Shown here one piece after another: positions 12,880-38,252 of a DNA stretch of 64,000 bases. Location of the stretch: IMG/VR virus record IMGVR_UViG_3300046170_000301; one strand, written 5' to 3'. Source of the DNA: a virus. The notes beneath the pieces are model-generated. The model made no database searches. It was not told where the DNA came from and saw nothing but the letters and a program-made list of their open reading frames with translations. The position numbers and the translations under genes were made by a program. Numbering within the stretch: position 1 is the stretch's first letter; every line of letters starts with the position of its first letter.

Positions 12880-15800
12880 TCAAACCTCCATTAGATACCA
12901 ACCAACTTTAGATGTTGGTGTAGCTGTATTATTATCTAGGTCAGATGCAGCAGCATAAACTAGAGTAAATGCAGCTCTTGGCGTTTGAACAACTAATTCA
13001 CCAGCATTAGTGGTATATCCAGCAAGGCTTTCAGTAACTCCAGTCAATAGTTCACTTCCAGTATTTGTATTATCTCCCTGAACAACTGTACTATCAGGAG
13101 CACGAACAATCAAAGTAACAGTATTTGAAAGATTGCCGCCGATATCAATAATGTGAACACTATCTCCCATTTGAGCATTTGATGGAAGTTTCACAAGAGT
13201 ATTTGCAGATGTATCAATAAAGTATCCATGATTTGGTAGTGCAGTAAACCCAGATGAATTGCTATATAACCACTTTCTACCACCGCTACTGCTGAAGAAA
13301 TTATCAACGCCAGCAATCTTGACAGAACCATTATTTGAAACTTTAAAGATTTCATCTCCATCAATATTATCGATTGCAAACTCAGAATCTTTAGCAGTTC
13401 TTCCAGCACCATCTTGGAAGTTAAGTTTCAATCCACCATCAGCTTCAATAGAACCACCAAACTCACTAAGTCCATTTCCTAAAGCAGAGAGTTTTCCATA
13501 TGTAGTAAGGTCACCAGAAGAGTTTACAAGTTTGAATACCTGCGTTGTTCCATCATCTTTATAAACATCAATATTACCACCGTTAATGACTAAGTTTCCT
13601 GTTGTGCTATCAACTTCAAACTTAGTATTAGTTCCATCAGTTATTGTTAGTTTTTGACTGCCAGCAACAACAGAACCATTTAAGGTTATAGAATTTTCCG
13701 TAGTTAAAGTACCAGCAATATTTGTATTTCCAGTGGCACTAGCAACAGTAAACTTATTATATCCAGCACCAACAGAAAGACTTCCTAGAGCTTTAACATT
13801 TCCGGTAATTGATTCTACAACAAATATTTTAACTTCTGGGTCCGCTTCACCATTTGTAATGATTAATGACTGAATATCTGTAGAAATAAGTTCTTCAATA
13901 GAAAGTATCTCACTTCCTCCAATATAAAGATAATCAGAAGTTGTCAGTACTCCACCAAACTCAGCAATACCAATTCTAATGTCAGAAGCATTATTTGGCA
14001 TTCCTGCACTAGGAGTATCAAGTTCGCCATCTTCATCACTGTCAATACCAGTCAAGAAACTAGCATTTGGTTGTCTATCAATCTTAGCAATAACAGTGTC
14101 TTCTGGGTGGTTTGTTTGTTGAGTAGTTCCAAACTGTGCTCTATTTACCTCTAGTGCATAACCGCCAGCGGCGCTGGGGTTTGTTAGATTAATAATCCCA
14201 ACTACTCTAAGAATCTCACTATATTGTTGGTCACGAAGTCCAGTTTGATAACCAGTTTGTCCAACAACTCCAGCAGTATCGGGAGAACTCGCATTTGCTC
14301 TATCTAAAAGAAGCAAATCATCAACTGCAAAATCTGAAACAGAAGATGCACTTATGGGAAGTACATAATTAGCACTAGGAACTGTAACATCAGTTACAGT
14401 AAATTCTACAGCATCTGCTCCCCCGCCACCAAGAGCGGAATCTGGTATTTGTAAAATTTCTGATTCTGCATATCCAGAACCACGTTCTACAATAGAAGAT
14501 ACTGTTACTGCACCAGTTCCATCAACAATAATGTTAAGAAGTAATCCAGTTCCAGCTCCTGCTGCGCCAGAATATGTTGGAGTAACATTTAAGTAAGTTC
14601 CAGCAGTTCTATCCGTATCTGCTGGCGTAGAACTATTTAAAGCAACAATTCCGCCACCAGCAACCTTAAACGAATCTCCACCCCAAAGACCTTGACCACC
14701 AGTGTTAATACTTCTTCCTGTAGAAATATATTTAAATACGTCGATATTTTGATTTGCTAAACTACCAACAGGATGTGCAGATTCATCCGTAGAGAACCTT
14801 GCTCTCTTAACCTTAACAATACCAGCGTTAAGACCACCGATTAATTTAATATTTGAATCAACAATCAAAGATGATTGAACTCTAAGAGCATTTCTAATAG
14901 TAGTAAATCCACCAAGTCCACCAAGTTTCAAATCAGGACAAGAAGTTGCAAGAGAAACATTCGTATTGAGGTCACTGGAGAACATTTCAATTTCCCCAAC
15001 TCTTGTTCTTATTCTGGCGGGATTTCCAGTGCTTCCCTCAGAATAATAATTGCCAATAGTTAGTTCGCCATCAAAAATAACATTTTTAGTTCTAAATTTA
15101 ATTTGACTTGTATTTCCAGAACCACCAGCAGAAAAAGCACCACCAATTTCAATATCACAACTATTTGTTTCGGAATCTGGTACTGTGGCAAGTTTTACTT
15201 CTGCTCTGGTAGAAGCATTATGAATTAAAAGTTTAGACCTAGTAGTTACAGCAGAACCAATGTATACATCTTGAGTATCCGCTTTTGTTCCAATTTCTAG
15301 TAGTTGACTACCAGTATTTTTAGAAAATGCTTTTACGAGTTGTGCGTCACCAGCAAAGTTCAAATTCTTTACATTATCTTGTAATAAATTAAATGTTTCG
15401 GCAGTACTATTAATGTCACCACCATCAACACTTAAATCTTCTTCTACAAGAATATTTCCAGTAAATCTAGAATCTCCAATAACAACAAAGTTTCTATCAA
15501 GACCTAATGTAGGACTTCCTAGCTTTGTATTAATACCTACTCTACCACCAGTTACATAAGTAGAACCTTGGTCACCAGATGCAAGGTCTGTTGTAGACAC
15601 CCTTAAAGTAGCTTCGTCATTTGGCGTGTCGCTATCACCACCAACAATTAGAGCATTATCTTGAGCGGTTTCTGTTTTGGTAATTCCAGATTCAGTAAGA
15701 TAAGAAAGTATTTTCTTACCACTAATAAATGTATTACCAACAACATCTAGATTCGCTCTTGGTTCTGTAGCACTACTTACAAAAGCGGTTAGATAATCTG

Positions 15801-18800
15801 CATGAATAGTTCTAGCAACAGTATTAATACCAACTTTGTATTCACCAATACTTTGAGTATCAGTTCTTATTGCTTCAGCACCAAGAACGCCAACTTCTTT
15901 CCATACAGAGTTTCCAATTTCTAATAGATTTGTAGTTCCCCAAGTAAAGGTATTCGCTGGAACTGTTGTTCCAATTTCAAATGCAACTTCAGTATCAGTA
16001 GAGTCAAAAGAATCTGCATCAACATCCCAAGTTCCATTAATAGCAGCAACAGAGAATCCAGAAATCCTTATTTTTGAAGATTCATTTACACCAATGGCAG
16101 CATTAGTAGCAGTTCCTGCCCATTTAATAACAATCTTATTTGTTCCATCTGATACAATTTCATCTACAGCATCACTTTCATCAGTAAATGTGCTAGCAAA
16201 AATCCATCCAAGTGAACCAGAACCACCAACATCAGAACCTTTTAATAAAACATCTCCAGGACTTGGAGCAGAACTTCCATAGGAAACTAACTGAGCAGCA
16301 CCGAATCTAGACGAAGCACTATCTTGTGCATTGGTCTGGGAATTTTGATTTGGTGTAATATTTGATGGTCTTCCAGCTGCAAAATGAGTTCTAAAAGTAT
16401 AACCTTGACCAAATAAACCAACTTCACTTCTTGGTGTTATTTGATAAACAGCAGAATTAATTCTGTTTTTACCAATTTTAATATCACCGTCTTCAAATGG
16501 TCTGAACTTAGACCTATCAAGAGTTCCATCTTCTCCTACAGTTTCATCAACTCTGCTGGAAATTCTTAGTGGAGTTCCTTCATCTGGTGCAGTATTGATA
16601 AACACTGGGTCATTAAATGTCGCTTCTCCATTAACAGTAATTTTATCATTAAATGTTACTGGATTATCAAATGTTGTTACAAGAGCACCGCCCAAATCGT
16701 CATCTTCATCAGAAGAATCTAGAAGAACTGCTCTTTCTAGGAATGTTTCTTCACCTGTAATAGCATTAATCTTACGATTACCAATATAAAGGTCACCGTT
16801 AGAGTTTAGACCAGTGTAGAAAACGATACCACCATCTTCTTTCTTAGACTGAGCATAGAAATCTTGAAGGTCTGAAAGAATGACCTCTTGGCGAAGTGGG
16901 AAACCAGTTGAGTAGTTACCAGGACCGAAACCAAGATATTCAAATGTGTGGTTACCAGAACGAGCAATAGAAGGACGACGTAGTTCTACATATACTTTAT
17001 CTTCTAATGGATATACAGTATCACCTTTAATAGGAATCAATCTATCTTCAGAACCAGAAGTTGCATTACCTTGCTGTGCTCTGATTCTGTTATCAATATT
17101 ATTAGTATTTGTATACTCAGCACCTTCAAATGCTGGAGTTTCAAGCAAATCTAGAACGACTTCTTTTGTTTCACTGTTCTTGGCATCATTTGTTCTTACC
17201 AATCCATGAACATAGTTATCAGCAGCACAAATAGTTGCTGGTGGGTCATTATTTTCTACATCTAACTGCTTATACCACAGTGGGTCGTTTTTGTAGTTTA
17301 GAGGATATAACTGAGAGATTGGTTGCGAGAACTTAAAGTTTCTAAAGTTTGTCCCAACACCAGCACCAGTTGGATATGGAGAAATATTTCCTCTAACACA
17401 TGACAGATAGTAAATACCATCTTGCTGTTTTGGAATTCTTTCTTGAATCTCATCAATATCAAAGATATAGAAAGTATCTTCGATTTCTCCAGCATCTTCT
17501 ACACCAGAAATAACATAAACATTATTTGCGTCATCAGTAATCTCATCTCCAGGAACTAAAGTATATGCATTAGCACCAGCGACTCTGTAAAGATAATCTT
17601 GACGATTTGACTTGCTCTTTCCATCTGGGTCGCCAACACTATCAGGTGCCGCCTTCAGTAATGTAAATGTTGCTCCTTGTTCAAACTTTGTCTGAATAAG
17701 TGGATTATATTCAATAGTTCCAGTAATTCTCTTTAGAATTAGAAAATATCTAGTGCCATAAGAAAGGAAAGCATGGGCATATGCAGTTCCAGAGCAATTT
17801 CCACTCCAACTTACTTCACTAGTAACATCAAATGTAAAGTCTTTTGTTGTAAAAGAACCACCTTGAGGACCTTCAACCTCTACTACAGTTAGATTTTCAT
17901 TTCTAATTTGCTGATTGGTAATACCATAATCAAAAACAATCATTTCTAGATTGTCATCATCATTTTTCTTAGCAGCTTGAATATCAAACGCAATTCTACT
18001 CTTGGTTTGATTACTAGAAACTGTTTTTGGTGAGAAATATGGGTCATATGATGGAACAATATTAAGTCCATCATATTCAGATTTAGTAAGTCCTAGTTGT
18101 TCATTTGCTTGGTCTGGGTCTGGATTATAAAAGATGGCAGTATCTGGTGTCTGGTCATCCTTTGGAACTAAAACAATCTTTTGTGGTAGAAGTCTTCTAG
18201 TATCATCAGTTCTTAGTTTGACAACAAATCCATTTAGAGGGTCTCTTACTGTCTCAAGATACTGTGGAATGACATAACGTAATCTGTATACTCTATCTGT
18301 TGGTTCTCTGTTATCAATAACTCTTTCAAACCAAGTATCATTTGTTCTGATTTTTCCACTATCATCATCATAATCACCAATAGGATTCTGTAGTCTCTTG
18401 ATGATATTTTCAGTATTTGTTGCAGTATCGTCAACTACCTGCAAATACCACAAACCACTATCATTTTCAGTGCTTGTTTTTGTGGCATCAAATCTTAGAG
18501 GACTGTTTCTCTTATCCGCAAAAACATAGAAATTATTTCCAGTTCCAGAAACAAAGTTTAATGCTCTAATATTTGATACAGCATCAGTAAATGATTCGTG
18601 AACAGTAAACTTGTTACTATCAACATATCTCGCATAGAAATAAGTGTTAGTATCAACAGTTCCAGAAGCAGTTTGAGGTAATGAATTAGTATCTCCCCTA
18701 AAGAAAATTAGATGTGGAGTAACTCCAGAAGCAGGAACATCAAAAATATGAGCAACACTTGTAGTAACTTCTGTTCCTGAAGCATTACAAATATACTCAT

Positions 18801-21800
18801 GTAAATCATACGAATCATCAAGAACAAACTTTTGAATTTGAATCTCTACATCTGGGTCAATAGAATCTGTTTCTGGCGAGTAAATGTAAATACCAGCGGC
18901 AGCATTTTCTTTACTGCTTGCAAGCATGAACTTAGTTTGGTCAGAACCATCAAATACGCTATTTTCGCTATAATCCTCTGGATAGGTCTTTCTTCCAGGA
19001 GCAATTACATAATATTTCTGATTTGTCTCAAATCCATCTGGTAATCTAATAACTCTCTTATCAGGATTTGTTCCATCTTTCGCTTTTGGAACTAATCTAA
19101 GTGGTGTTCCAGTTTCAAAGTTATGTGGATTACCACCAGCAATAGTAAATACAGTTGCTCTTGAGGCAAGATTTTCAACATCAAGTTCTGGTTCTACTCT
19201 AGTAACCCCATTTCCAGTCAATCCAGTAGAAAGAATAACATTAATGTCATCAAAATAATCACTAATAATTCCTGCTACATCATCACATTCTGGGTATCCA
19301 GTATCTTGAATAATAGAATCATCTTTTTGAGGGTTTTCAACCGCCCAAATTGGGTCTTGAAAATCAAAATACAAAAATGCGTTGGTCTTATTTGAATTTG
19401 CAGTTACTTCAATTCCATCATCAAGATACGAACCAGTTTCGCCTAATATAATTGTAGTGTCGTCTTTAATTTCTTTAATATATGTTCCAGAAGGAATAGC
19501 AGAAGTAATTTGTGTGGAAATATCTTTTAACTTACCATCTTCAAAATCTACTTCCGCATATTCACCAACTCTCATTCCGACAACAAGACCAACAGTGCTG
19601 CCAACATTCACTTCAGCACTACCGTTTGTAATTGTGCAATTTCTAATCAGATAATCATAGTTACGCATTGCAGCGATACAATGATTTCTAGTATATTCAA
19701 GAGCTTCTAAAGTTTCTGATAACTCCCCAGAAATATAAGTTAACTGTCCACCAACATAATATGACTCTGCCGCTTGAATGGTGTTAATATTACCACCAAG
19801 TCTCAAGTCTTTTACAACTGCATCAACATAATATCCGACATCTCTTTTGCATTTTTCGATGTTTATTGTCGTTTTATTTAAAAGACCTGGGTATTTTCTT
19901 GTAATATATTCATATACTTCACTTTGAATCAAAGTTTTATTGTCTTCAATTCTGTTCGCAGCATCTTGTCTCTTTCCATAAGCAGAGTCATTTTCAATTT
20001 CTGGTGGATTGAGAATATCAAGAGAAACAGTGTTTACTTCAAATCCAGATGGTTTTAATGTGCAATTAAATCTTTCTGTTCCGCCAGCAGTTGCTGGGTC
20101 TAATTTTACAAATAATTTCTCATCAGATCTAGCACCAATTCTATATCCTTGTAGTGTCGCTGCTGGTCTTGTGAATGGACTGGTTAAATCATCTCCAGCA
20201 AGATATAGTTTTGTCTTATTACCAGAATCATTTGTTTGTAAAATGTCAATGGTATAATATGGAACTTTTTCGGAATTTGTTGATTCTGAGAAAGCATCAG
20301 TTGCATATCCACCAGTAACTTCTCTCGGTGGAATAATATGAGTTAAATATCCTCCTTTATCTTGATTGAAAGAATATCCTTTATGTCCAATAGCATGAAG
20401 TGAAGTATTACCAAAGTTAGAGTTGGAGTTGGTGATAGACATATCACCACCAGACTCCATCAAGAAGTGGTCAAAGAATCCAACAGCAAAGACCGAAACG
20501 CACTGAATAAACGCATCTTCAGAAGCACGAATGTGGAAGTTTCTCCAGTCATCCTTCCAATATGCATCACCTTTTGTGTGATATGGAACTGTAGCAAATG
20601 CATCAGTTAGAGATGCTTCATTCCAAGTGTTGGTGAATCTATCGTAACGAATAAATGCTCTATCGTCTTTTTGTAGAGAAACACCAGTATACTGGGCAAC
20701 AACCATGGATTTAAATCCAGTTGCTTTTGCACCATTCGCCCACATACCACACTGACCCCAGGTGGAACGGATTGAGCAGTTAAAGACATATGGTGAAGCA
20801 GATTCTACAGAGTCAATTTCTGCTTGTGCTACAGCATTAGTATCAAGACCATTTGCAGTGCTATAAACTTGATTATTAACAAGACCAAATGCACCTGGAA
20901 CTTTATTGTCAATTTGATAAGTAAACACTTTCGGGTTTAGATTACTAATAGATGTAATCTTAAATGTTCCGTTCAGTTCTTCATCTAGTCCAGTATTAAG
21001 AACCGCAACATACTGACCAGCGAAATATCCGTGATTGATTTTTGTTGTTACTTCAAATGTAGTTCCATCAGTTGTTTCTGTTGTTTTAATACTTTCAATA
21101 ACTCTGGTATCTGAAAGTGGCCCAACAATTCTGTTTTCTTGAACAAGTGCTTCAAACTCCCCATCATCAATAGTTGGTTGATACTTAGAGAATGAAAGAC
21201 CAACTTTTGTATAGTAATCATCAAGTTCTGAGTTATCTGCATATTCCATGATGCAGATTTTGTGGTGAGAATACTCAGGAATTGATAATGTTGTTGTATT
21301 ACCTGCTTGGAAATATACTTTACCTACATTATCATTTTCATCAAATAATGGCGAATTAGCAGATAAATCTCCATCTTTAATTGTAAACTGCCAAAGATAG
21401 CAACCACCAGTTAGATTAAAGATAGAAGTTCTTCCTTGATTACCATCTGCTGGGTCTGGAACATACAGTGGTCTTACAATAGTTCTACGAAGGTCATATC
21501 CAACAAGTGAACAACCTCTAGGAACAATAGCGCCACCAGTAGTAGCGTTATACTTATAAAGAACGTTATTTGGGTTTGAAAGGTCTAAAATAGACTCATC
21601 TTCCCATTCACCAGTAGATTGGTTGAAATTAAAAATGGGAAGGTCTGATAAAGTTTGTGGGTCTTCTGTTGCTGTGTAATTTACTAGACCAGGGCGGTTA
21701 TCAATGTAGTGGTCACCAGGCATCAACATGATGCTAAACTGGTCAAATCTATCGTTATTTCTTCCAGGAAGATATGAATACCTTGCTACTTCAATGAAGG

Positions 21801-21942
21801 CTCTTTGAATTGTCTTAAATGGTCTTAGAGGTGAATTACCTCTATTGTCTAAAGCGTCAGTAGCGTTAAAATCGTCTGGAGAAACATATAGATATTTTCC
21901 CGTTTTACTTGAATATAGATTATCAAGTCTAGTAAGAGCCAT
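12880..21942 (-). CDS. giant virion structural / tail-fibre-like protein (3020 aa)
   Basis: N-terminal LYVSP...GNSPLRPFKTIQRA; SITNSNSNFG and HTFEYLGFGPGNY motifs of cyanomyophage fibres; T4 late promoter upstream. Confidence 0.8.
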   Translation of the reverse strand: MALTRLDNLYSSKTGKYLYVSPDDFNATDALDNRGNSPLRPFKTIQRAFIEVARYSYLPGRNNDRFDQFSIMLMPGDHYIDNRPGLVNYTATEDPQTLSDLPIFNFNQSTGEWEDESILDLSNPNNVLYKYNATTGGAIVPRGCSLVGYDLRRTIVRPLYVPDPADGNQGRTSIFNLTGGCYLWQFTIKDGDLSANSPLFDENDNVGKVYFQAGNTTTLSIPEYSHHKICIMEYADNSELDDYYTKVGLSFSKYQPTIDDGEFEALVQENRIVGPLSDTRVIESIKTTETTDGTTFEVTTKINHGYFAGQYVAVLNTGLDEELNGTFKITSISNLNPKVFTYQIDNKVPGAFGLVNNQVYSTANGLDTNAVAQAEIDSVESASPYVFNCSIRSTWGQCGMWANGAKATGFKSMVVAQYTGVSLQKDDRAFIRYDRFTNTWNEASLTDAFATVPYHTKGDAYWKDDWRNFHIRASEDAFIQCVSVFAVGFFDHFLMESGGDMSITNSNSNFGNTSLHAIGHKGYSFNQDKGGYLTHIIPPREVTGGYATDAFSESTNSEKVPYYTIDILQTNDSGNKTKLYLAGDDLTSPFTRPAATLQGYRIGARSDEKLFVKLDPATAGGTERFNCTLKPSGFEVNTVSLDILNPPEIENDSAYGKRQDAANRIEDNKTLIQSEVYEYITRKYPGLLNKTTINIEKCKRDVGYYVDAVVKDLRLGGNINTIQAAESYYVGGQLTYISGELSETLEALEYTRNHCIAAMRNYDYLIRNCTITNGSAEVNVGSTVGLVVGMRVGEYAEVDFEDGKLKDISTQITSAIPSGTYIKEIKDDTTIILGETGSYLDDGIEVTANSNKTNAFLYFDFQDPIWAVENPQKDDSIIQDTGYPECDDVAGIISDYFDDINVILSTGLTGNGVTRVEPELDVENLASRATVFTIAGGNPHNFETGTPLRLVPKAKDGTNPDKRVIRLPDGFETNQKYYVIAPGRKTYPEDYSENSVFDGSDQTKFMLASSKENAAAGIYIYSPETDSIDPDVEIQIQKFVLDDSYDLHEYICNASGTEVTTSVAHIFDVPASGVTPHLIFFRGDTNSLPQTASGTVDTNTYFYARYVDSNKFTVHESFTDAVSNIRALNFVSGTGNNFYVFADKRNSPLRFDATKTSTENDSGLWYLQVVDDTATNTENIIKRLQNPIGDYDDDSGKIRTNDTWFERVIDNREPTDRVYRLRYVIPQYLETVRDPLNGFVVKLRTDDTRRLLPQKIVLVPKDDQTPDTAIFYNPDPDQANEQLGLTKSEYDGLNIVPSYDPYFSPKTVSSNQTKSRIAFDIQAAKKNDDDNLEMIVFDYGITNQQIRNENLTVVEVEGPQGGSFTTKDFTFDVTSEVSWSGNCSGTAYAHAFLSYGTRYFLILKRITGTIEYNPLIQTKFEQGATFTLLKAAPDSVGDPDGKSKSNRQDYLYRVAGANAYTLVPGDEITDDANNVYVISGVEDAGEIEDTFYIFDIDEIQERIPKQQDGIYYLSCVRGNISPYPTGAGVGTNFRNFKFSQPISQLYPLNYKNDPLWYKQLDVENNDPPATICAADNYVHGLVRTNDAKNSETKEVVLDLLETPAFEGAEYTNTNNIDNRIRAQQGNATSGSEDRLIPIKGDTVYPLEDKVYVELRRPSIARSGNHTFEYLGFGPGNYSTGFPLRQEVILSDLQDFYAQSKKEDGGIVFYTGLNSNGDLYIGNRKINAITGEETFLERAVLLDSSDEDDDLGGALVTTFDNPVTFNDKITVNGEATFNDPVFINTAPDEGTPLRISSRVDETVGEDGTLDRSKFRPFEDGDIKIGKNRINSAVYQITPRSEVGLFGQGYTFRTHFAAGRPSNITPNQNSQTNAQDSASSRFGAAQLVSYGSSAPSPGDVLLKGSDVGGSGSLGWIFASTFTDESDAVDEIVSDGTNKIVIKWAGTATNAAIGVNESSKIRISGFSVAAINGTWDVDADSFDSTDTEVAFEIGTTVPANTFTWGTTNLLEIGNSVWKEVGVLGAEAIRTDTQSIGEYKVGINTVARTIHADYLTAFVSSATEPRANLDVVGNTFISGKKILSYLTESGITKTETAQDNALIVGGDSDTPNDEATLRVSTTDLASGDQGSTYVTGGRVGINTKLGSPTLGLDRNFVVIGDSRFTGNILVEEDLSVDGGDINSTAETFNLLQDNVKNLNFAGDAQLVKAFSKNTGSQLLEIGTKADTQDVYIGSAVTTRSKLLIHNASTRAEVKLATVPDSETNSCDIEIGGAFSAGGSGNTSQIKFRTKNVIFDGELTIGNYYSEGSTGNPARIRTRVGEIEMFSSDLNTNVSLATSCPDLKLGGLGGFTTIRNALRVQSSLIVDSNIKLIGGLNAGIVKVKRARFSTDESAHPVGSLANQNIDVFKYISTGRSINTGGQGLWGGDSFKVAGGGIVALNSSTPADTDRTAGTYLNVTPTYSGAAGAGTGLLLNIIVDGTGAVTVSSIVERGSGYAESEILQIPDSALGGGGADAVEFTVTDVTVPSANYVLPISASSVSDFAVDDLLLLDRANASSPDTAGVVGQTGYQTGLRDQQYSEILRVVGIINLTNPSAAGGYALEVNRAQFGTTQQTNHPEDTVIAKIDRQPNASFLTGIDSDEDGELDTPSAGMPNNASDIRIGIAEFGGVLTTSDYLYIGGSEILSIEELISTDIQSLIITNGEADPEVKIFVVESITGNVKALGSLSVGAGYNKFTVASATGNTNIAGTLTTENSITLNGSVVAGSQKLTITDGTNTKFEVDSTTGNLVINGGNIDVYKDDGTTQVFKLVNSSGDLTTYGKLSALGNGLSEFGGSIEADGGLKLNFQDGAGRTAKDSEFAIDNIDGDEIFKVSNNGSVKIAGVDNFFSSSGGRKWLYSNSSGFTALPNHGYFIDTSANTLVKLPSNAQMGDSVHIIDIGGNLSNTVTLIVRAPDSTVVQGDNTNTGSELLTGVTESLAGYTTNAGELVVQTPRAAFTLVYAAASDLDNNTATPTSKVGWYLMEV

Positions 21943-33272: not shown

Positions 33273-36200
33273 TTAGTTTCCTAAACCAATACGAAGTTTT
33301 TCTAATGTCTTAGCATTATATTCATTCTTAGTTCTCCATCTACCAGTAGCCAAAGGAACAAACTCAACTCCTGGAGCAGATGGAGGAGTAGATGGTTTTG
33401 CTTGCTGGTTTACTACTAAGTATTTTGTTCCGCCTCTATTATCTGGACCTTGTAAAGATTGAAACTTTGGTGCTTGTGTTGGAGATGGTTTTATTTCTCC
33501 AGACAAAGATGCTGTTGCTCTCGGTCCCCCGCCTTCCTTTTCTATCTGTCTCTGTCTACTTACTTGTTCAAGTATCCATCTATTTTTATCTTTTGATACT
33601 GGAATAACATTTCCCTTTTCATCAGTGACTTTATTGTTTTCAAAGTCAAAGTTTACCTTCATGTATTCACCTTGTTTATTTTGAACATTATAAGTTTTAC
33701 TTGTTGTCTTGGGAACAACTGGTTCCTGTGGTTCCACTTCTTGATTCTGCCCAGACAAATCAACTTCAGGAGCATCCTGTCTCTCCATTTCCTTGTTAAC
33801 TACAGTAACTTTACCACCACCTCTAAAGAACTTACTGGCATATGGTTGTGGATTCATATGTCCTGTTAATACTCCACCGTTCCATCCAGTTCCAAGTTCA
33901 AAGTGTAAATGTGGACCTTCACTGGCACCAGTGTTTCCTAATGTTCCAATAACTGGGGCATTTCCTTGACTATCTGGTTCTAATTTCTGTCCCTTTCTTA
34001 CATTAATACTATCTAAATGTCCATACAATGTATGTAATCCATCGTCATGTTTTACAACAACAAACTGACCCCATCCAGCATTTTTATTGTTTGGATTTTG
34101 CCATCCAGCAAACACAACAGTTCCTGGTTGTATCACAGATATTGGGGCACCAACTCTTGAAAATGGTCCACCAGAATAATCAACACCATTATGAGTTGGT
34201 CTATTTGATGTTCTAAATCCACTATAAACATATGCCGATGGGTCTTCACCACCTTTTACTGATAAAGCGTCGCCAATATCAATTTCAGGAGCATCAGTTG
34301 GATTTATCTTCCCGCTAATAGCCTTTATCAAACTATTAATAGGGTCCTGTAAAAATCCTAATAGTTTATCAACAAAAGATTCTTTCTTTATACCATACTC
34401 TTCATCTCTTTCAAGAACTTTCTTTTCTTCTTCCTTTTTCTTTAATGATGGTCCAATTGTTGGGAAGTTACCACCAACTGGAGTTTGAGCAATGACATTA
34501 GGGACATCAAATGTTTTCATTAATGGTCCCGCCATCTGCCTAATCAATGGAGCAACTGATGCTCCTGCTGGACCCATGCCACCAACAAAGTTCATGGTAG
34601 CTGCTACCATAGCACCACCAATATCATTAAATGGATTGAGTTTATCTTTATCTAATACAAGCTCTGTGCCATGAAGTATAGCAGTTCCAGGTTCTACATC
34701 CTTTGTTCCTTGTTCGTATCCTTCTGCTCCAGTAAAAGTATCAGAAATCTTAGAACCAGCAAATCCACCACCAATACCACCAAGTATACCACCGAGAACA
34801 GCTCCTATAGCAGCGCCAGGAGCAGCACCAACGCCACCAAAAAAAGCTCCTATAAAAGCGCCCAAAGCAGCTCCACCTTTTGCTCCAGCGGCACCGCCAG
34901 CTGCAGCACCAGCAAGTCCACCCCCCACACCAGATAGTGCTTGAACATCACTCTGCCCAGCTTTTTTTCTTTCTGAATATTCAAGTCCAGCAAAAGCATA
35001 TTTCAATGGTCCTGCTGCTCTACCCACTCTTCCCAATCCTTTTATTTTATTCAAAGCATTAACAGCTTTTCTCGTCTGTCCTGGCATTCTTCTCGCCAAT
35101 GCTCCACCTACTCTCGATGTCACCGCTTTAGTTGCTCTTGACTTCAACATATCAGGAGTCTTTTGTAATTTTCTAAGTCTCCTTCTCATATTTCTAAGTC
35201 TTTTTGGAGACTTTCTGTATAGTTTTTTGGCAAATTTACTTCTTAAATATTTTAAAATAAAGTTCCCCCCTTTGCCATCAGTTTTTATATTACCAGATAC
35301 ATCAACATACTCAAAAGTTCTAGCGGCATCTCTCTTCTCTTCCAATGCTCTTTCGGCAGCAGCATTCTCAGCTTCTTCTGCTAACTGTTTTGCTTTCTCA
35401 TTTTGAAGATTAAATGCCTGTAGTATAGCATCAAGTTTAGATACAATCAAAGAGTCCTGATTTTCAACAGTATCTAAAGCAGATATTAGAACTTGAGTGT
35501 TAGCTAATATAAGATTGTTTTGATTTTGAATTGAATCATTGATGCTTGATAGTTCTCCTTGAATCTTCAAGAAGTTAGACTTCATAAACTCAAAGATTTC
35601 TTTGTTTGTTTTGTAAGAACTTGGTTTAGATGTTGCTCTTTCTCTTTTTTTATTATTGATAACCTGTTCAAGTTCTTCTCTAATGCTGTCTGGTATATCA
35701 GATAGGTCTACCTCTTGTTGAGCATTGTCTGCTTCTTCCAAAACTTCAGCAGCAGTTTCTGCCTGTTCTTTTACTTCTTCAGTATCATTTTCTTCTTCAT
35801 CTCTAATTGAATCAAGAAAAGAATCATCTATAATACTTTCATCTTCATCATATTCTTCTTCATAATCATCTTGTATTGGAAACTCAAATGGTCCATCGTA
35901 AATAGGAGGAACAACTACAGGATTCTCATCTGGATATGCCTTAACAAGTTCAAGAATATATTCCTTAATCCTATCACGATATTCTCTAAGCTCTTCGTAG
36001 TCATCATAACTATTCAATCCAGTAACAGCAAATATCCACTCTCTAACAGCTTCTTTTGTTCCTGTAGATTTTTGGTTATCACCTTTACTGAACTTTGAAT
36101 AATATATTGCTCTATCAATATCAGATTTAAACTCAAGGTCATACAAACCAGTCTGTCCCCACATATATCGTGGTTGAATGTGTTGTAGTTCTGGATATAA

Positions 36201-36629
36201 CTTTGGATGATTTACATTTCTTACTGGTTTTTTTTCAATTTCTAGAACAGGTTTCTCTTCTACTGTAGGGGTAGGTTCTTGAACTGGAGCTGTTTGTTTT
36301 GATTCTGAAGCATCAGATAATCCATCTGAAGCATCAGATAATCCATAAAATATTTTTAGTTTTCTTTGAATGGAATAAAAAGCGGCAGAACTTTTTCCCG
36401 TTATAATTTCACTATCTATATCATCATAATATTCTGGCAAATCTGTTATTGATAACCAAGTATCTCTACTGGCAGAAATTCTTTTTGCTTTATCAATTCC
36501 TTCAGTTGTATGTGGAAGAACCCCATAACTAATTAAATGTCCTTCGAGAATTTCTCGATAAAAATCATTTCTAATTTTTTTTATTGCCGACAGAGGAATC
36601 TCCCCTTTTGATAACTTGAAATCGTTCAT
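33273..36629 (-). CDS. tape-measure-like virion protein with an M23 peptidase domain
   Basis: HNGVD (HxxxD), LYGHL and GNTGASEGPHLHFE; glycine-zipper hydrophobic segment. Confidence 0.8.
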   Translation of the reverse strand: MNDFKLSKGEIPLSAIKKIRNDFYREILEGHLISYGVLPHTTEGIDKAKRISASRDTWLSITDLPEYYDDIDSEIITGKSSAAFYSIQRKLKIFYGLSDASDGLSDASESKQTAPVQEPTPTVEEKPVLEIEKKPVRNVNHPKLYPELQHIQPRYMWGQTGLYDLEFKSDIDRAIYYSKFSKGDNQKSTGTKEAVREWIFAVTGLNSYDDYEELREYRDRIKEYILELVKAYPDENPVVVPPIYDGPFEFPIQDDYEEEYDEDESIIDDSFLDSIRDEEENDTEEVKEQAETAAEVLEEADNAQQEVDLSDIPDSIREELEQVINNKKRERATSKPSSYKTNKEIFEFMKSNFLKIQGELSSINDSIQNQNNLILANTQVLISALDTVENQDSLIVSKLDAILQAFNLQNEKAKQLAEEAENAAAERALEEKRDAARTFEYVDVSGNIKTDGKGGNFILKYLRSKFAKKLYRKSPKRLRNMRRRLRKLQKTPDMLKSRATKAVTSRVGGALARRMPGQTRKAVNALNKIKGLGRVGRAAGPLKYAFAGLEYSERKKAGQSDVQALSGVGGGLAGAAAGGAAGAKGGAALGAFIGAFFGGVGAAPGAAIGAVLGGILGGIGGGFAGSKISDTFTGAEGYEQGTKDVEPGTAILHGTELVLDKDKLNPFNDIGGAMVAATMNFVGGMGPAGASVAPLIRQMAGPLMKTFDVPNVIAQTPVGGNFPTIGPSLKKKEEEKKVLERDEEYGIKKESFVDKLLGFLQDPINSLIKAISGKINPTDAPEIDIGDALSVKGGEDPSAYVYSGFRTSNRPTHNGVDYSGGPFSRVGAPISVIQPGTVVFAGWQNPNNKNAGWGQFVVVKHDDGLHTLYGHLDSINVRKGQKLEPDSQGNAPVIGTLGNTGASEGPHLHFELGTGWNGGVLTGHMNPQPYASKFFRGGGKVTVVNKEMERQDAPEVDLSGQNQEVEPQEPVVPKTTSKTYNVQNKQGEYMKVNFDFENNKVTDEKGNVIPVSKDKNRWILEQVSRQRQIEKEGGGPRATASLSGEIKPSPTQAPKFQSLQGPDNRGGTKYLVVNQQAKPSTPPSAPGVEFVPLATGRWRTKNEYNAKTLEKLRIGLGN

Positions 36630-36631
36630 TG

Positions 36632-36810
36632 CTATTGCTGTTTCTTAGCTTCTTCTTCTTGAATGTGCTGAATCAATAGAGCAACATACACTTCACGTTC
36701 CCAAGGCATCATATTCTCAAGCTCCGTTAAAGAATATTTATGGAACTGCATCAGATTGAAGTTCGTTTTGTAATACCCTTCCAACGTATTGTGGAAGAGT
36801 GCTATACGAA
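36632..36810 (-). CDS. gp51: gp51-like baseplate hub assembly ORF (no good start; in the -1 frame of gp26)
   Basis: RIALFHNTLEGYYKTNFNLMQFHKYSLTELENMMPWEREVYVALL...*; missing from the ORF track; alternative starts TTG 36784 or ATG 36751. Confidence 0.75.
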
Positions 36811-37515
36811 AAAATTTTGTAGTCCCTCAATAACATACGAAGATTCCACACCAGTATTTGGATTCTTCACTTTAAATTCATGACGTAGTTTAGGCATGGT
36901 CTCATAGAATTTTTGAATGGCTTCAAACTGTTTGTTTGTCAACGTCTCCACCCATTCTTCCATCTCTTTCTTTGATGTGGTAGACATATCCCACACTTCT
37001 TCACCATCAAATACTTGTTCAATGTGGTCAGCAATAAACTTAAATACTTCTTCAGTTTTGATATCTTTATCGAGGAACTCAGACTCAATAAATCTATCCA
37101 TACTTGGATACTTTATAATGATACCAAGAGTATCTGTCAACATAATCTTATTGGTATGACCTTCTAGTTTAATTACCTCAACCTCTTCAATGTTGATTGA
37201 TGTTTCTACTTCTGTTTCATTATCATCACGACATGTTACTTTCATTTTAATCATTTCACCAGCAGAAGCAGCACGAATCTTTAAGAAGATATATTCCAAA
37301 TCAAATGATGGAAGTTCTTCTACTTTGATTCTACTGGTAACACAGTTACTAATGAGTTCTTTGATTGCTTCTTTAATTGGTCCTTCTTCTTCTGATTCTA
37401 AGGCAAGGAGAAGAACCTTTTCTTCTTTAACAATATATGGTCTGTATTTAATTTTCTTTTTGTTGGAAGGAAGTTCAAGTTCAAGAGTTGGATAACCAAT
37501 TTTAGGTAATGACAT
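36802..37515 (-). CDS. gp26: baseplate hub subunit gp26-like
   Basis: MSLPKI...YRPYIVKEEKVLL...FDLEYIFLKIRA..GE...MPKL...IEGLQNFF. Confidence 0.85.
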   Translation of the reverse strand: MSLPKIGYPTLELELPSNKKKIKYRPYIVKEEKVLLLALESEEEGPIKEAIKELISNCVTSRIKVEELPSFDLEYIFLKIRAASAGEMIKMKVTCRDDNETEVETSINIEEVEVIKLEGHTNKIMLTDTLGIIIKYPSMDRFIESEFLDKDIKTEEVFKFIADHIEQVFDGEEVWDMSTTSKKEMEEWVETLTNKQFEAIQKFYETMPKLRHEFKVKNPNTGVESSYVIEGLQNFFV

Positions 37516-37544: not shown

Positions 37545-38252
37545 TTATCCCTCAAATTTACGAACGTCTGAAGTATAAATGCTGTGAGTTGTGTAATAAA
37601 AATTACCAGTTACTTTTGTAATCTGTGATGTTCCATAAGATAAAGGAACCGCATCAACTGAATAAGGAAAACATTTTTCAATTACATATACCAATGGCAC
37701 TCTACTGTTTGGAGCGGTCTTTCCTCTTTCTGTCTTGGCAATTCTAAGTACTGCTTGATATTGATTAGGATATTTCAATCTAATAGACCTATTTACATTC
37801 CTTTCTTTTGCTTCGTTTTTAAAATTTTTTAAGGAGTCTGTAGTTCTTTGTATAGGATATTCATTAAACAAACCAGCACTAAAAATATAATTGTGCCAGG
37901 CAAGAAGAAACTTATATGGTGCCATGTTGGCATCACACATCCAAGTTAAACTGAAGTCACTCAAAAGTCTTGTATGTGGATAATTCTTCTGTCCTTCACC
38001 AAGATACCTACCATTAACCTGACCAGTGGCAGCTTGAGAATTAGGTAGTTGTGCTTCATCACAGAACATATTAATTAGAGAACCAGGATTGCCAGCATCA
38101 TTTGCTTCAGGAACTTTTATATTATAGTTCTGTAATACTCCGTTAAGTTCCGTAAGTCCACTAAAATCAAACTCAATGTCATATCCATTTGTCATGGACA
38201 TTCCGCCGTTGGCGGAAATCGCTGCCATGAAATTTGTTATTGAACCTGCCAC
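37545..38252 (-). CDS. tail-tube-fold protein (gp54/gp19-like baseplate tube initiator)
   Basis: CDEAQLP, FSLTW, FPYSVDAVPLSY and KVTGNFYY; position between gp26 and gp4. Confidence 0.65.
   Translation of the reverse strand: MAGSITNFMAAISANGGMSMTNGYDIEFDFSGLTELNGVLQNYNIKVPEANDAGNPGSLINMFCDEAQLPNSQAATGQVNGRYLGEGQKNYPHTRLLSDFSLTWMCDANMAPYKFLLAWHNYIFSAGLFNEYPIQRTTDSLKNFKNEAKERNVNRSIRLKYPNQYQAVLRIAKTERGKTAPNSRVPLVYVIEKCFPYSVDAVPLSYGTSQITKVTGNFYYTTHSIYTSDVRKFEG

Follow-up and report, generated by a model that had tools for sequence, protein, structure and literature searches.

How is a small open reading frame (ORF) translated when its conserved part lies ahead of every start codon that it contains? 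This question is raised by the 3′ end of gp26 in the window, by which we mean the whole 64,000-nucleotide stretch of viral DNA analysed here (IMG/VR virus record IMGVR_UViG_3300046170_000301), which comes from a T4-like cyanophage. On the minus strand, gp26 (36802..37515, −) encodes in the 0-frame a 237-aa protein ending in ..GLQNFFV, the short chaperone form (TAC-N). The gene ends CAA AAT TTT TTC GTA TAG, and this end contains the slippery heptamer T_TTT_TTC (36808..36814, −) in the X_XXY_YYZ phase, with the 0-frame stop TAG (36802..36804, −) placed one codon past it. The −1 frame is closed six codons 5′ of the heptamer and then stays open for 60 codons up to a TAG at 36634..36632, forming a gp51-like tail (36632..36814, −) with 58 codons after the FF. 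From the heptamer onwards, the −1 frame peptide reads FFRIALFHNTLEGYYKTNF... A −1 slip, in which base 36808 would be read twice, would join 236 residues of gp26 to these 58 residues. The resulting fusion would have 294 aa and the junction GLQNFFR, with ..EGLQNFFR/IALFHNTLEGYYK as its predicted junction peptide. The coordinates that a preliminary description of this DNA had given for the gp26 end, the heptamer, the −1 ORF and the 294-aa fusion all hold on the minus strand.

The gene that follows, which we call tape-measure-like (33273..36629, −; 1118 aa), begins 3 nt past the stop codon of the −1 ORF. Its product carries a C-terminal M23 peptidoglycan peptidase domain at residues 812-913 (PF01551, E = 3e-20), and the position and size of the gene agree with those of HTVC008M genes annotated as tape measure. 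A BLASTP comparison of the 1118-aa protein with T4 gp29 gave no significant similarity, so its identity as the tape measure is presumptive. The same protein contains a long Gly/Ala-rich hydrophobic stretch. On its 5′ side, gp26 is adjoined by a gene for a tail-tube-fold protein similar to the tube initiators gp48/gp54 (37545..38252, −). This neighbour matched PF23849 (Phage_TTP_2, E = 2e-50), and isolate genomes annotate the corresponding gene as baseplate tail tube initiator; BLASTP against T4 gp54 detected no significant similarity. The order of tube-fold gene, gp26, −1 ORF and tape-measure-like gene was found in the window and in 11 isolate genomes. The pair thus lies directly upstream of a presumptive tape measure gene, in the G/GT position, as had been proposed. 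Elsewhere in the window, an ORF of 3020 aa (12880..21942, −) lies within the structural gene block.

To which proteins do the two frames correspond? gp26 matched PF12322 (T4_baseplate) across residues 9-236 (E = 3.1e-70) and phrog_150, 'baseplate hub' (E = 7e-75). BLASTP aligned it with T4 gp26 (E = 1e-9) up to the ..FF, where the T4 protein has ..GLKEFF. The −1 ORF matched phrog_634 from residue 2 onwards (E = 6.9e-28), and its residues 2-47 align with residues 200-244 of T4 gp51; by tblastn, the gp51-like tail was matched in 580 phage records. In T4, gp26 (208 aa) consists of the PF12322 domain, ending in ..GLKEFF, plus three residues, and gp51 (249 aa) consists of PF12322 (residues 1-201, E = 4e-52) plus a tail matching phrog_634 (E = 1e-23). 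On account of these domain and tail homologies, the predicted fusion is built like T4 gp51, and the 0-frame product like T4 gp26. PF28602 is listed on the gp51 tail in precomputed Pfam annotations, so a curated model for this tail seems to exist.

The way in which the pair is encoded differs between the two phages. The proteins belong to the PF12322 family in both, as the domain alone and the domain plus tail, but T4 has two separate, divergently transcribed genes without a T run, whereas here there is one gene with a frame change. The FF of T4 gene 26 is encoded by TTC TTT and the corresponding junction in T4 gp51 by GTG TTT AAG; T4 therefore has no slip site, its T run having been lost. Two PF12322 genes are present in T4, and one each in the complete genomes of S-CAM1, S-PM2, HTVC008M and phi-Grn1. 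With a single PF12322 gene in these related genomes, a long form would need recoding. T4 gp26 and gp51 are listed as hub assembly chaperones, and gp51 is essential yet absent from the particle (Leiman et al. 2010, PMC3004832).

Alternatively, the small ORF might be expressed with no recoding at all, by initiating alone at TTG 36784, at ATG 36751 or at a non-canonical codon. TTG 36784 and ATG 36751 are indeed present, as the only start candidates inside the −1 ORF of the window, and many GenBank/RefSeq records annotate a separate small CDS of 45-60 aa, termed 'baseplate hub assembly catalyst'. However, the annotated starts differ between records and several records annotate no small CDS; no joined CDS was found among the 16 isolate records examined. 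No Shine-Dalgarno motif precedes either TTG 36784 or ATG 36751. We further compared 171 usable junctions, namely 160 uncultured-virus contigs, 10 isolate genomes and the window. None of them has an ATG, GTG or TTG within or 5′ of the conserved −1 peptide. Every start candidate lies 3′ of the conserved residues FFR[IV]A.F.N.LE, and the first candidate varies in position from codon +3 to codon +33. Ten loci lack an ATG in the −1 ORF, one group (L021-L025) lacks any Met, and in another locus (L084) a −1-frame TAG stands immediately 5′ of TTTTTT. Separate initiation would also leave the invariant heptamer, the fixed distance to the stop and the T4 gp51 architecture unexplained. Judged from the sequences, independent initiation of the −1 ORF is very unlikely, and we give an explanation without any recoding only a slight chance. 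It had been noted beforehand that the conserved part of the gp51-like ORF precedes its first ATG, which holds in all 171 junctions, and that the ORF has no clear ribosome-binding site, which holds in the window.

Some relatives show further variation 3′ of the junction. In many metagenome proteins, such as P0032, P0051, P0062 and P0022, the gp51 frame, called from an internal MQHHKY Met, continues without a stop. The read-through frame enters an ORF of ~110 aa whose product has an EF-hand-like DxDGDG motif and ends in a hydrophobic C-terminus; P0022 is the one case in which the gp51 frame continues into a tape-measure-like protein bearing a lysozyme-type domain. In distant isolates, this place is occupied by a small ORF of its own (L086:1411-1743, L088:1385-1831, L089:1405-1824 and L090:1386-1814), and the window has none. 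If the read-through forms are real, the long chaperone form in those phages would carry an extra module.

Conservation of the heptamer and of the −1 phase had been set beforehand as a test of the frameshift proposal. The contigs were drawn as two sets of 80 whose proteins were 48-95% identical to the queries, alongside 13 isolate genomes. TTTTTTC is present in 167/171 junctions and T_TTT_TTN in the remaining four, and the gap between heptamer and 0-frame stop is exactly one sense codon in 169/171; heptamer and phase are thus conserved as predicted. Three more isolates, inspected by eye, showed the same layout. The −1 ORF is 53-72 codons long across the 171 junctions. In a set of 58 unique cyanophage junctions, variation falls at the third positions of the 0-frame up to the heptamer and at the third positions of the −1 frame from the heptamer on, and both frames are under purifying selection. 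Although the first T of the heptamer falls at the 0-frame wobble position of codons that vary between Asn, Ser, Asp and Ala, it does not change in any of these junctions. The layout is also kept in phages of Pelagibacter, Vibrio (KVP40-like), Stenotrophomonas, Sinorhizobium, Rhizobium, Pseudomonas, Aeromonas, Cronobacter and Desulfovibrio. In these distant phages, the flanking DNA is no longer recognisably similar.

To gauge chance, we counted in-phase X_XXY_YYZ heptamers in the 34 long genes of the window and found 92, four of which are TTTTTTC. By itself, the heptamer is within chance; its conservation is far beyond chance. Three other genes of the window also contain TTTTTTC in phase, so that on its own the heptamer can be no more than weakly shifty. 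In-phase T6 is not avoided in the genes of the window, where 8 of the 18 T6 runs are in the slippery phase.

The same comparison bears on the idea that the split is a homopolymer error of sequencing or assembly, or a decaying gene, and that the true gene is one in-frame ORF of 294 aa. A few in-frame fusions of 294-306 aa do exist in the databases (P0002, P0005, P0006, P0008 and P0009) and would agree with it. The in-frame forms are singletons, however, and the same six-T split recurs in 171 independent assemblies and in isolates from different laboratories and methods, with the purifying selection on both frames also speaking against an error. We regard the chance of an artefact or of decay as negligible. 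P0005 was considered as a natural in-frame lineage and rejected, because all 80 of its uncultured-virus contig relatives, up to 95% identical, are split, with ..FF[AEG] followed by a stop and two frames. P0002, P0005 and P0008 are rare in-frame fusions of 299-300 aa, each from one contig, and such fusions join a few codons 5′ of the FF or without a T run (..GQAF-RVAL in P0005). Either assembly errors or naturally occurring but rare 'long-only' alleles may explain these three. The original proposal of a lambda G/GT-like −1 frameshift joining gp26 to gp51 is supported by the conserved heptamer and phase, the start-less −1 peptide and the T4 gp51 architecture. We hold with high confidence that a −1 frame change at the T run makes the long form.

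Which machinery would change the frame? The RNA around the heptamer contains two candidate signals. The first is a predicted hairpin (36771..36804, −), whose main 9-bp stem pairs 36800..36792 with 36783..36775. It begins 7 nt 3′ of the heptamer and has a minimum free energy of −12.5 kcal/mol (z = −4.5), with 0/200 shuffled sequences as stable. Over 45 sequences, which are not phylogenetically independent, 94% of cells are paired, compared with 47-62% when the partner is slid, and covariation is seen at one pair only (CG in 25 and GC in 13). In the S-PM2 clade, its place is taken by a different stem of 14 bp (z = −6.5). RNAalifold gave no consensus structure over all cyanophage junctions, because the S-PM2 clade uses another stem, and the clades were then analysed separately. 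For 118 unique junctions, the 46 nt directly 3′ of the heptamer have a mean folding energy of −10.7 kcal/mol and a median z of −2.4. In seven control windows the energies were −4.6 to −6.7 kcal/mol and z was ~0, and the unusual stability is thus limited to the 3′ window. HTVC008M, P10VF, AS-szw and the Desulfovibrio phage have a weak hairpin or none, and both arms of the hairpin encode conserved residues.

The second signal is a GAGG (36825..36828, −) lying 10 nt 5′ of the heptamer, a candidate Shine-Dalgarno-like stimulator. Its Glu codon is GAG in 73/96 unique junctions (76%), compared with 31% at the other Glu codons of the same genes, in counts that, like those for the hairpin, are not phylogenetically independent. 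The two Gs contributed by the following Gly codon are invariant in 58/58 unique junctions. GAGG overlaps conserved Glu-Gly codons, and T4 gp26 keeps Arg-Gly there without a frameshift. The heptamer itself, as U_UU.U_UU.C, is among the −1 motifs measured as efficient in E. coli (PMC4066793).

The frame change could instead arise during transcription, if RNA polymerase added one U on the T6 run and a standard ribosome then read from gp26 into the gp51 frame. The extra U would yield the identical 294-aa protein, and the signal is always a pure T run, which reaches a length of 7-8 T in phiN3, pf16 and HTVC008M. A non-translational mechanism is also suggested by the title of Vladimirov et al. 2022, a paper considered below from citations of it. 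On the other hand, the window has 65 T6[C/T] runs, with 18 T6 runs inside genes, and slippage at T6 must be rare because such runs are this common. Efficient transcriptional slippage in bacteria usually needs runs of 9 or more, and the run is just 6 T in 167/171 loci. Hairpin-assisted slippage would need a stable hairpin upstream, and the 50 nt upstream of the heptamer show no unusual structure (z = −0.3 to −0.8). The stable structure lies downstream instead, where it could act on ribosomes but not on the nascent transcript, and the GAGG codon bias at a dnaX-like spacing would be given no role. The missing run of about 9 or more and the missing upstream hairpin make the slippage model less likely, although they would be compatible with slippage at a low level; overall, we consider polymerase slippage an unlikely source of the long form, though one that keeps appreciable weight. 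A ribosomal mechanism is favoured over it because of the downstream hairpin, the GAGG codon bias, the lack of an upstream hairpin and the combination of a six-T run with a proven heptamer.

For the ribosomal frameshift, we propose the following course. Most ribosomes would terminate at TAG 36804..36802 and release the 237-aa short form. A minority would slip back by one base, with two Phe-tRNAs on T_TTT_TTC (36814..36808), and the slipped ribosomes would read CGT ATA GCA... in the −1 frame to produce the 294-aa form with its 58-residue 'gp51' tail. The slip is probably aided by the hairpin 7 nt downstream and by the GAGG 10 nt upstream, a motif able to base-pair with 16S rRNA in the manner of E. 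coli dnaX. If the two forms act like lambda gpG/gpGT and T4 gp26/gp51, the N-terminal part common to both would form a coat around the product of the neighbouring tape-measure-like gene, and the tail present only on the long form would bring in tube or hub subunits. The data directly show how the sequence is laid out, that it is conserved and to what it is homologous; we infer the slip itself, its ribosomal nature, and the ratio and roles of both forms. On the strength of the sequence comparisons, it is likely, though well short of certain, that the chaperone gene yields its 237- and 294-aa forms by a ribosomal −1 slip at T_TTT_TTC.

The proposed arrangement of signals resembles that of E. coli dnaX, where frameshifting is stimulated by a Shine-Dalgarno-like element at a spacing of ~10 nt similar to that of the GAGG. 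Both would combine three parts at comparable spacing, namely the upstream Shine-Dalgarno-like element, the heptamer and the downstream hairpin, the upstream and downstream parts being candidates in the phage. They differ in that the dnaX heptamer is A_AAA_AAG and its frameshift truncates the protein, whereas the cyanophage one would extend it. The more specific reading, in which non-T-even T4-like phages use a ribosomal −1 shift on U_UUU_UUC driven by a dnaX-like set of GAGG, heptamer and hairpin, has in our judgement slightly better than even prospects.

Conserved −1 frameshifting of tail assembly chaperone genes is well documented (Levin 1993; Xu, Hendrix, Duda 2004, 2013, 2014; review PMC5009743). 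The locus shares several features with lambda gpG/gpGT. In both, overlapping ORFs lie between tube-type and tape measure genes, and the first ORF has an X_XXY_YYZ heptamer close to its 3′ end. Lambda makes a short product and, less often, a long one with the same N-terminal part, as is predicted here. The differences are equally clear. No sequence similarity to lambda-type chaperone families was detectable, and the part common to both products is far longer in this phage (236 aa, which include an additional C-terminal domain). Lambda uses the heptamer G_GGA_AAG where this phage has U_UUU_UUC, and the role described for the T4 homologues is in hub assembly.

Is there nevertheless a structural relationship to lambda-type chaperones? 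AlphaFold2 produced a gp26 model with a pLDDT of 89.5 and a pTM of 0.82. Foldseek found no matches to this model in the PDB, and neither a gp26 sequence profile run against PDB chains nor an NCBIfam search gave any match. We then used exhaustive structural alignment against 48,161 chains, first with the whole gp26 model and then with a model of the N-terminal domain; the guidance of the alignment tool treats a Z below 8 as middling, which applies to all of the scores below. With the whole model, the top three chains align to residues 1-90 at middling Z values of 6.4-6.9, and the score of 2ob9 across the two models is 6.9-7.4. With the N-domain model, the top rank went to 3fgx, an uncharacterised Bacillus protein (Z = 7.5), followed by 2ob9, the HK97 tail assembly chaperone (Z = 7.4, rmsd 3.4, 83 aligned), and 3klu, YqbN (Z = 7.3), with the fourth-ranked chain at 4.5. 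We take YqbN to be an XkdN-type chaperone of PBSX-like prophages. The gap in Z and the nature of the matches support, for the modelled structure, a chaperone-like N-terminal domain in gp26, though the scores are middling; in this respect, the domain would fold like the HK97 chaperone and so resemble lambda-type chaperones. The C-terminal half of gp26 (residues ~88-236) gave weak structural matches (Z ~3) to zinc-ribbon proteins. T4 gp26 (L085:3803-4429) has CxC and CxxC motifs at the corresponding strands, and most of these cysteines are lost in the cyanophage protein.

The preliminary description had added that such a frameshift was not known to be described for T4-like phages, and this part does not stand. 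Our full-text literature search for gp26/gp51 together with frameshift or chaperone returned nothing relevant, and the pertinent work (Vladimirov, Gautam, Davidson, Virology 2022;566:9-15, doi 10.1016/j.virol.2021.11.003) was traced through the PRFect paper. In the citations through which we know it, the 2022 paper is given as the source for gp26/gp51 as chaperones of T4-like phages and for poly-T −1 signals in TAC-N genes of these phages (PMC12846349). According to the PRFect paper, it also reports that some T4-like phages have a short gene and a longer fusion gene. The poly-T signal found here agrees with the account of that work in PMC12846349. As far as these citing accounts go, the chaperone pair and the poly-T signal in T4-like phages appear to have been described already in 2022. 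The novelty of the present locus is low, since it is a further, unannotated example of something already described.

The locus nevertheless bears on a large body of annotation, as hundreds of GenBank/RefSeq records either annotate here a 'baseplate hub assembly catalyst' mini-gene that is variable and lacks a start, or have no annotation at this place. The evidence for the hairpin and the GAGG offers a concrete handle on whether the mechanism is ribosomal or polymerase-based. In nearly all long-tailed phages, one gene is known to supply both a short and a long chaperone form, and T4 has long been an apparent exception. As part of the three-part ribosomal reading, and with the same modest leaning in its favour, the T4-like relatives would be ordinary G/GT cases and the two-gene state of T4 would be derived. 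The locus shows how the T4 exception can be resolved: the relatives keep the frame change within one gene, and T4 holds two diverged copies.
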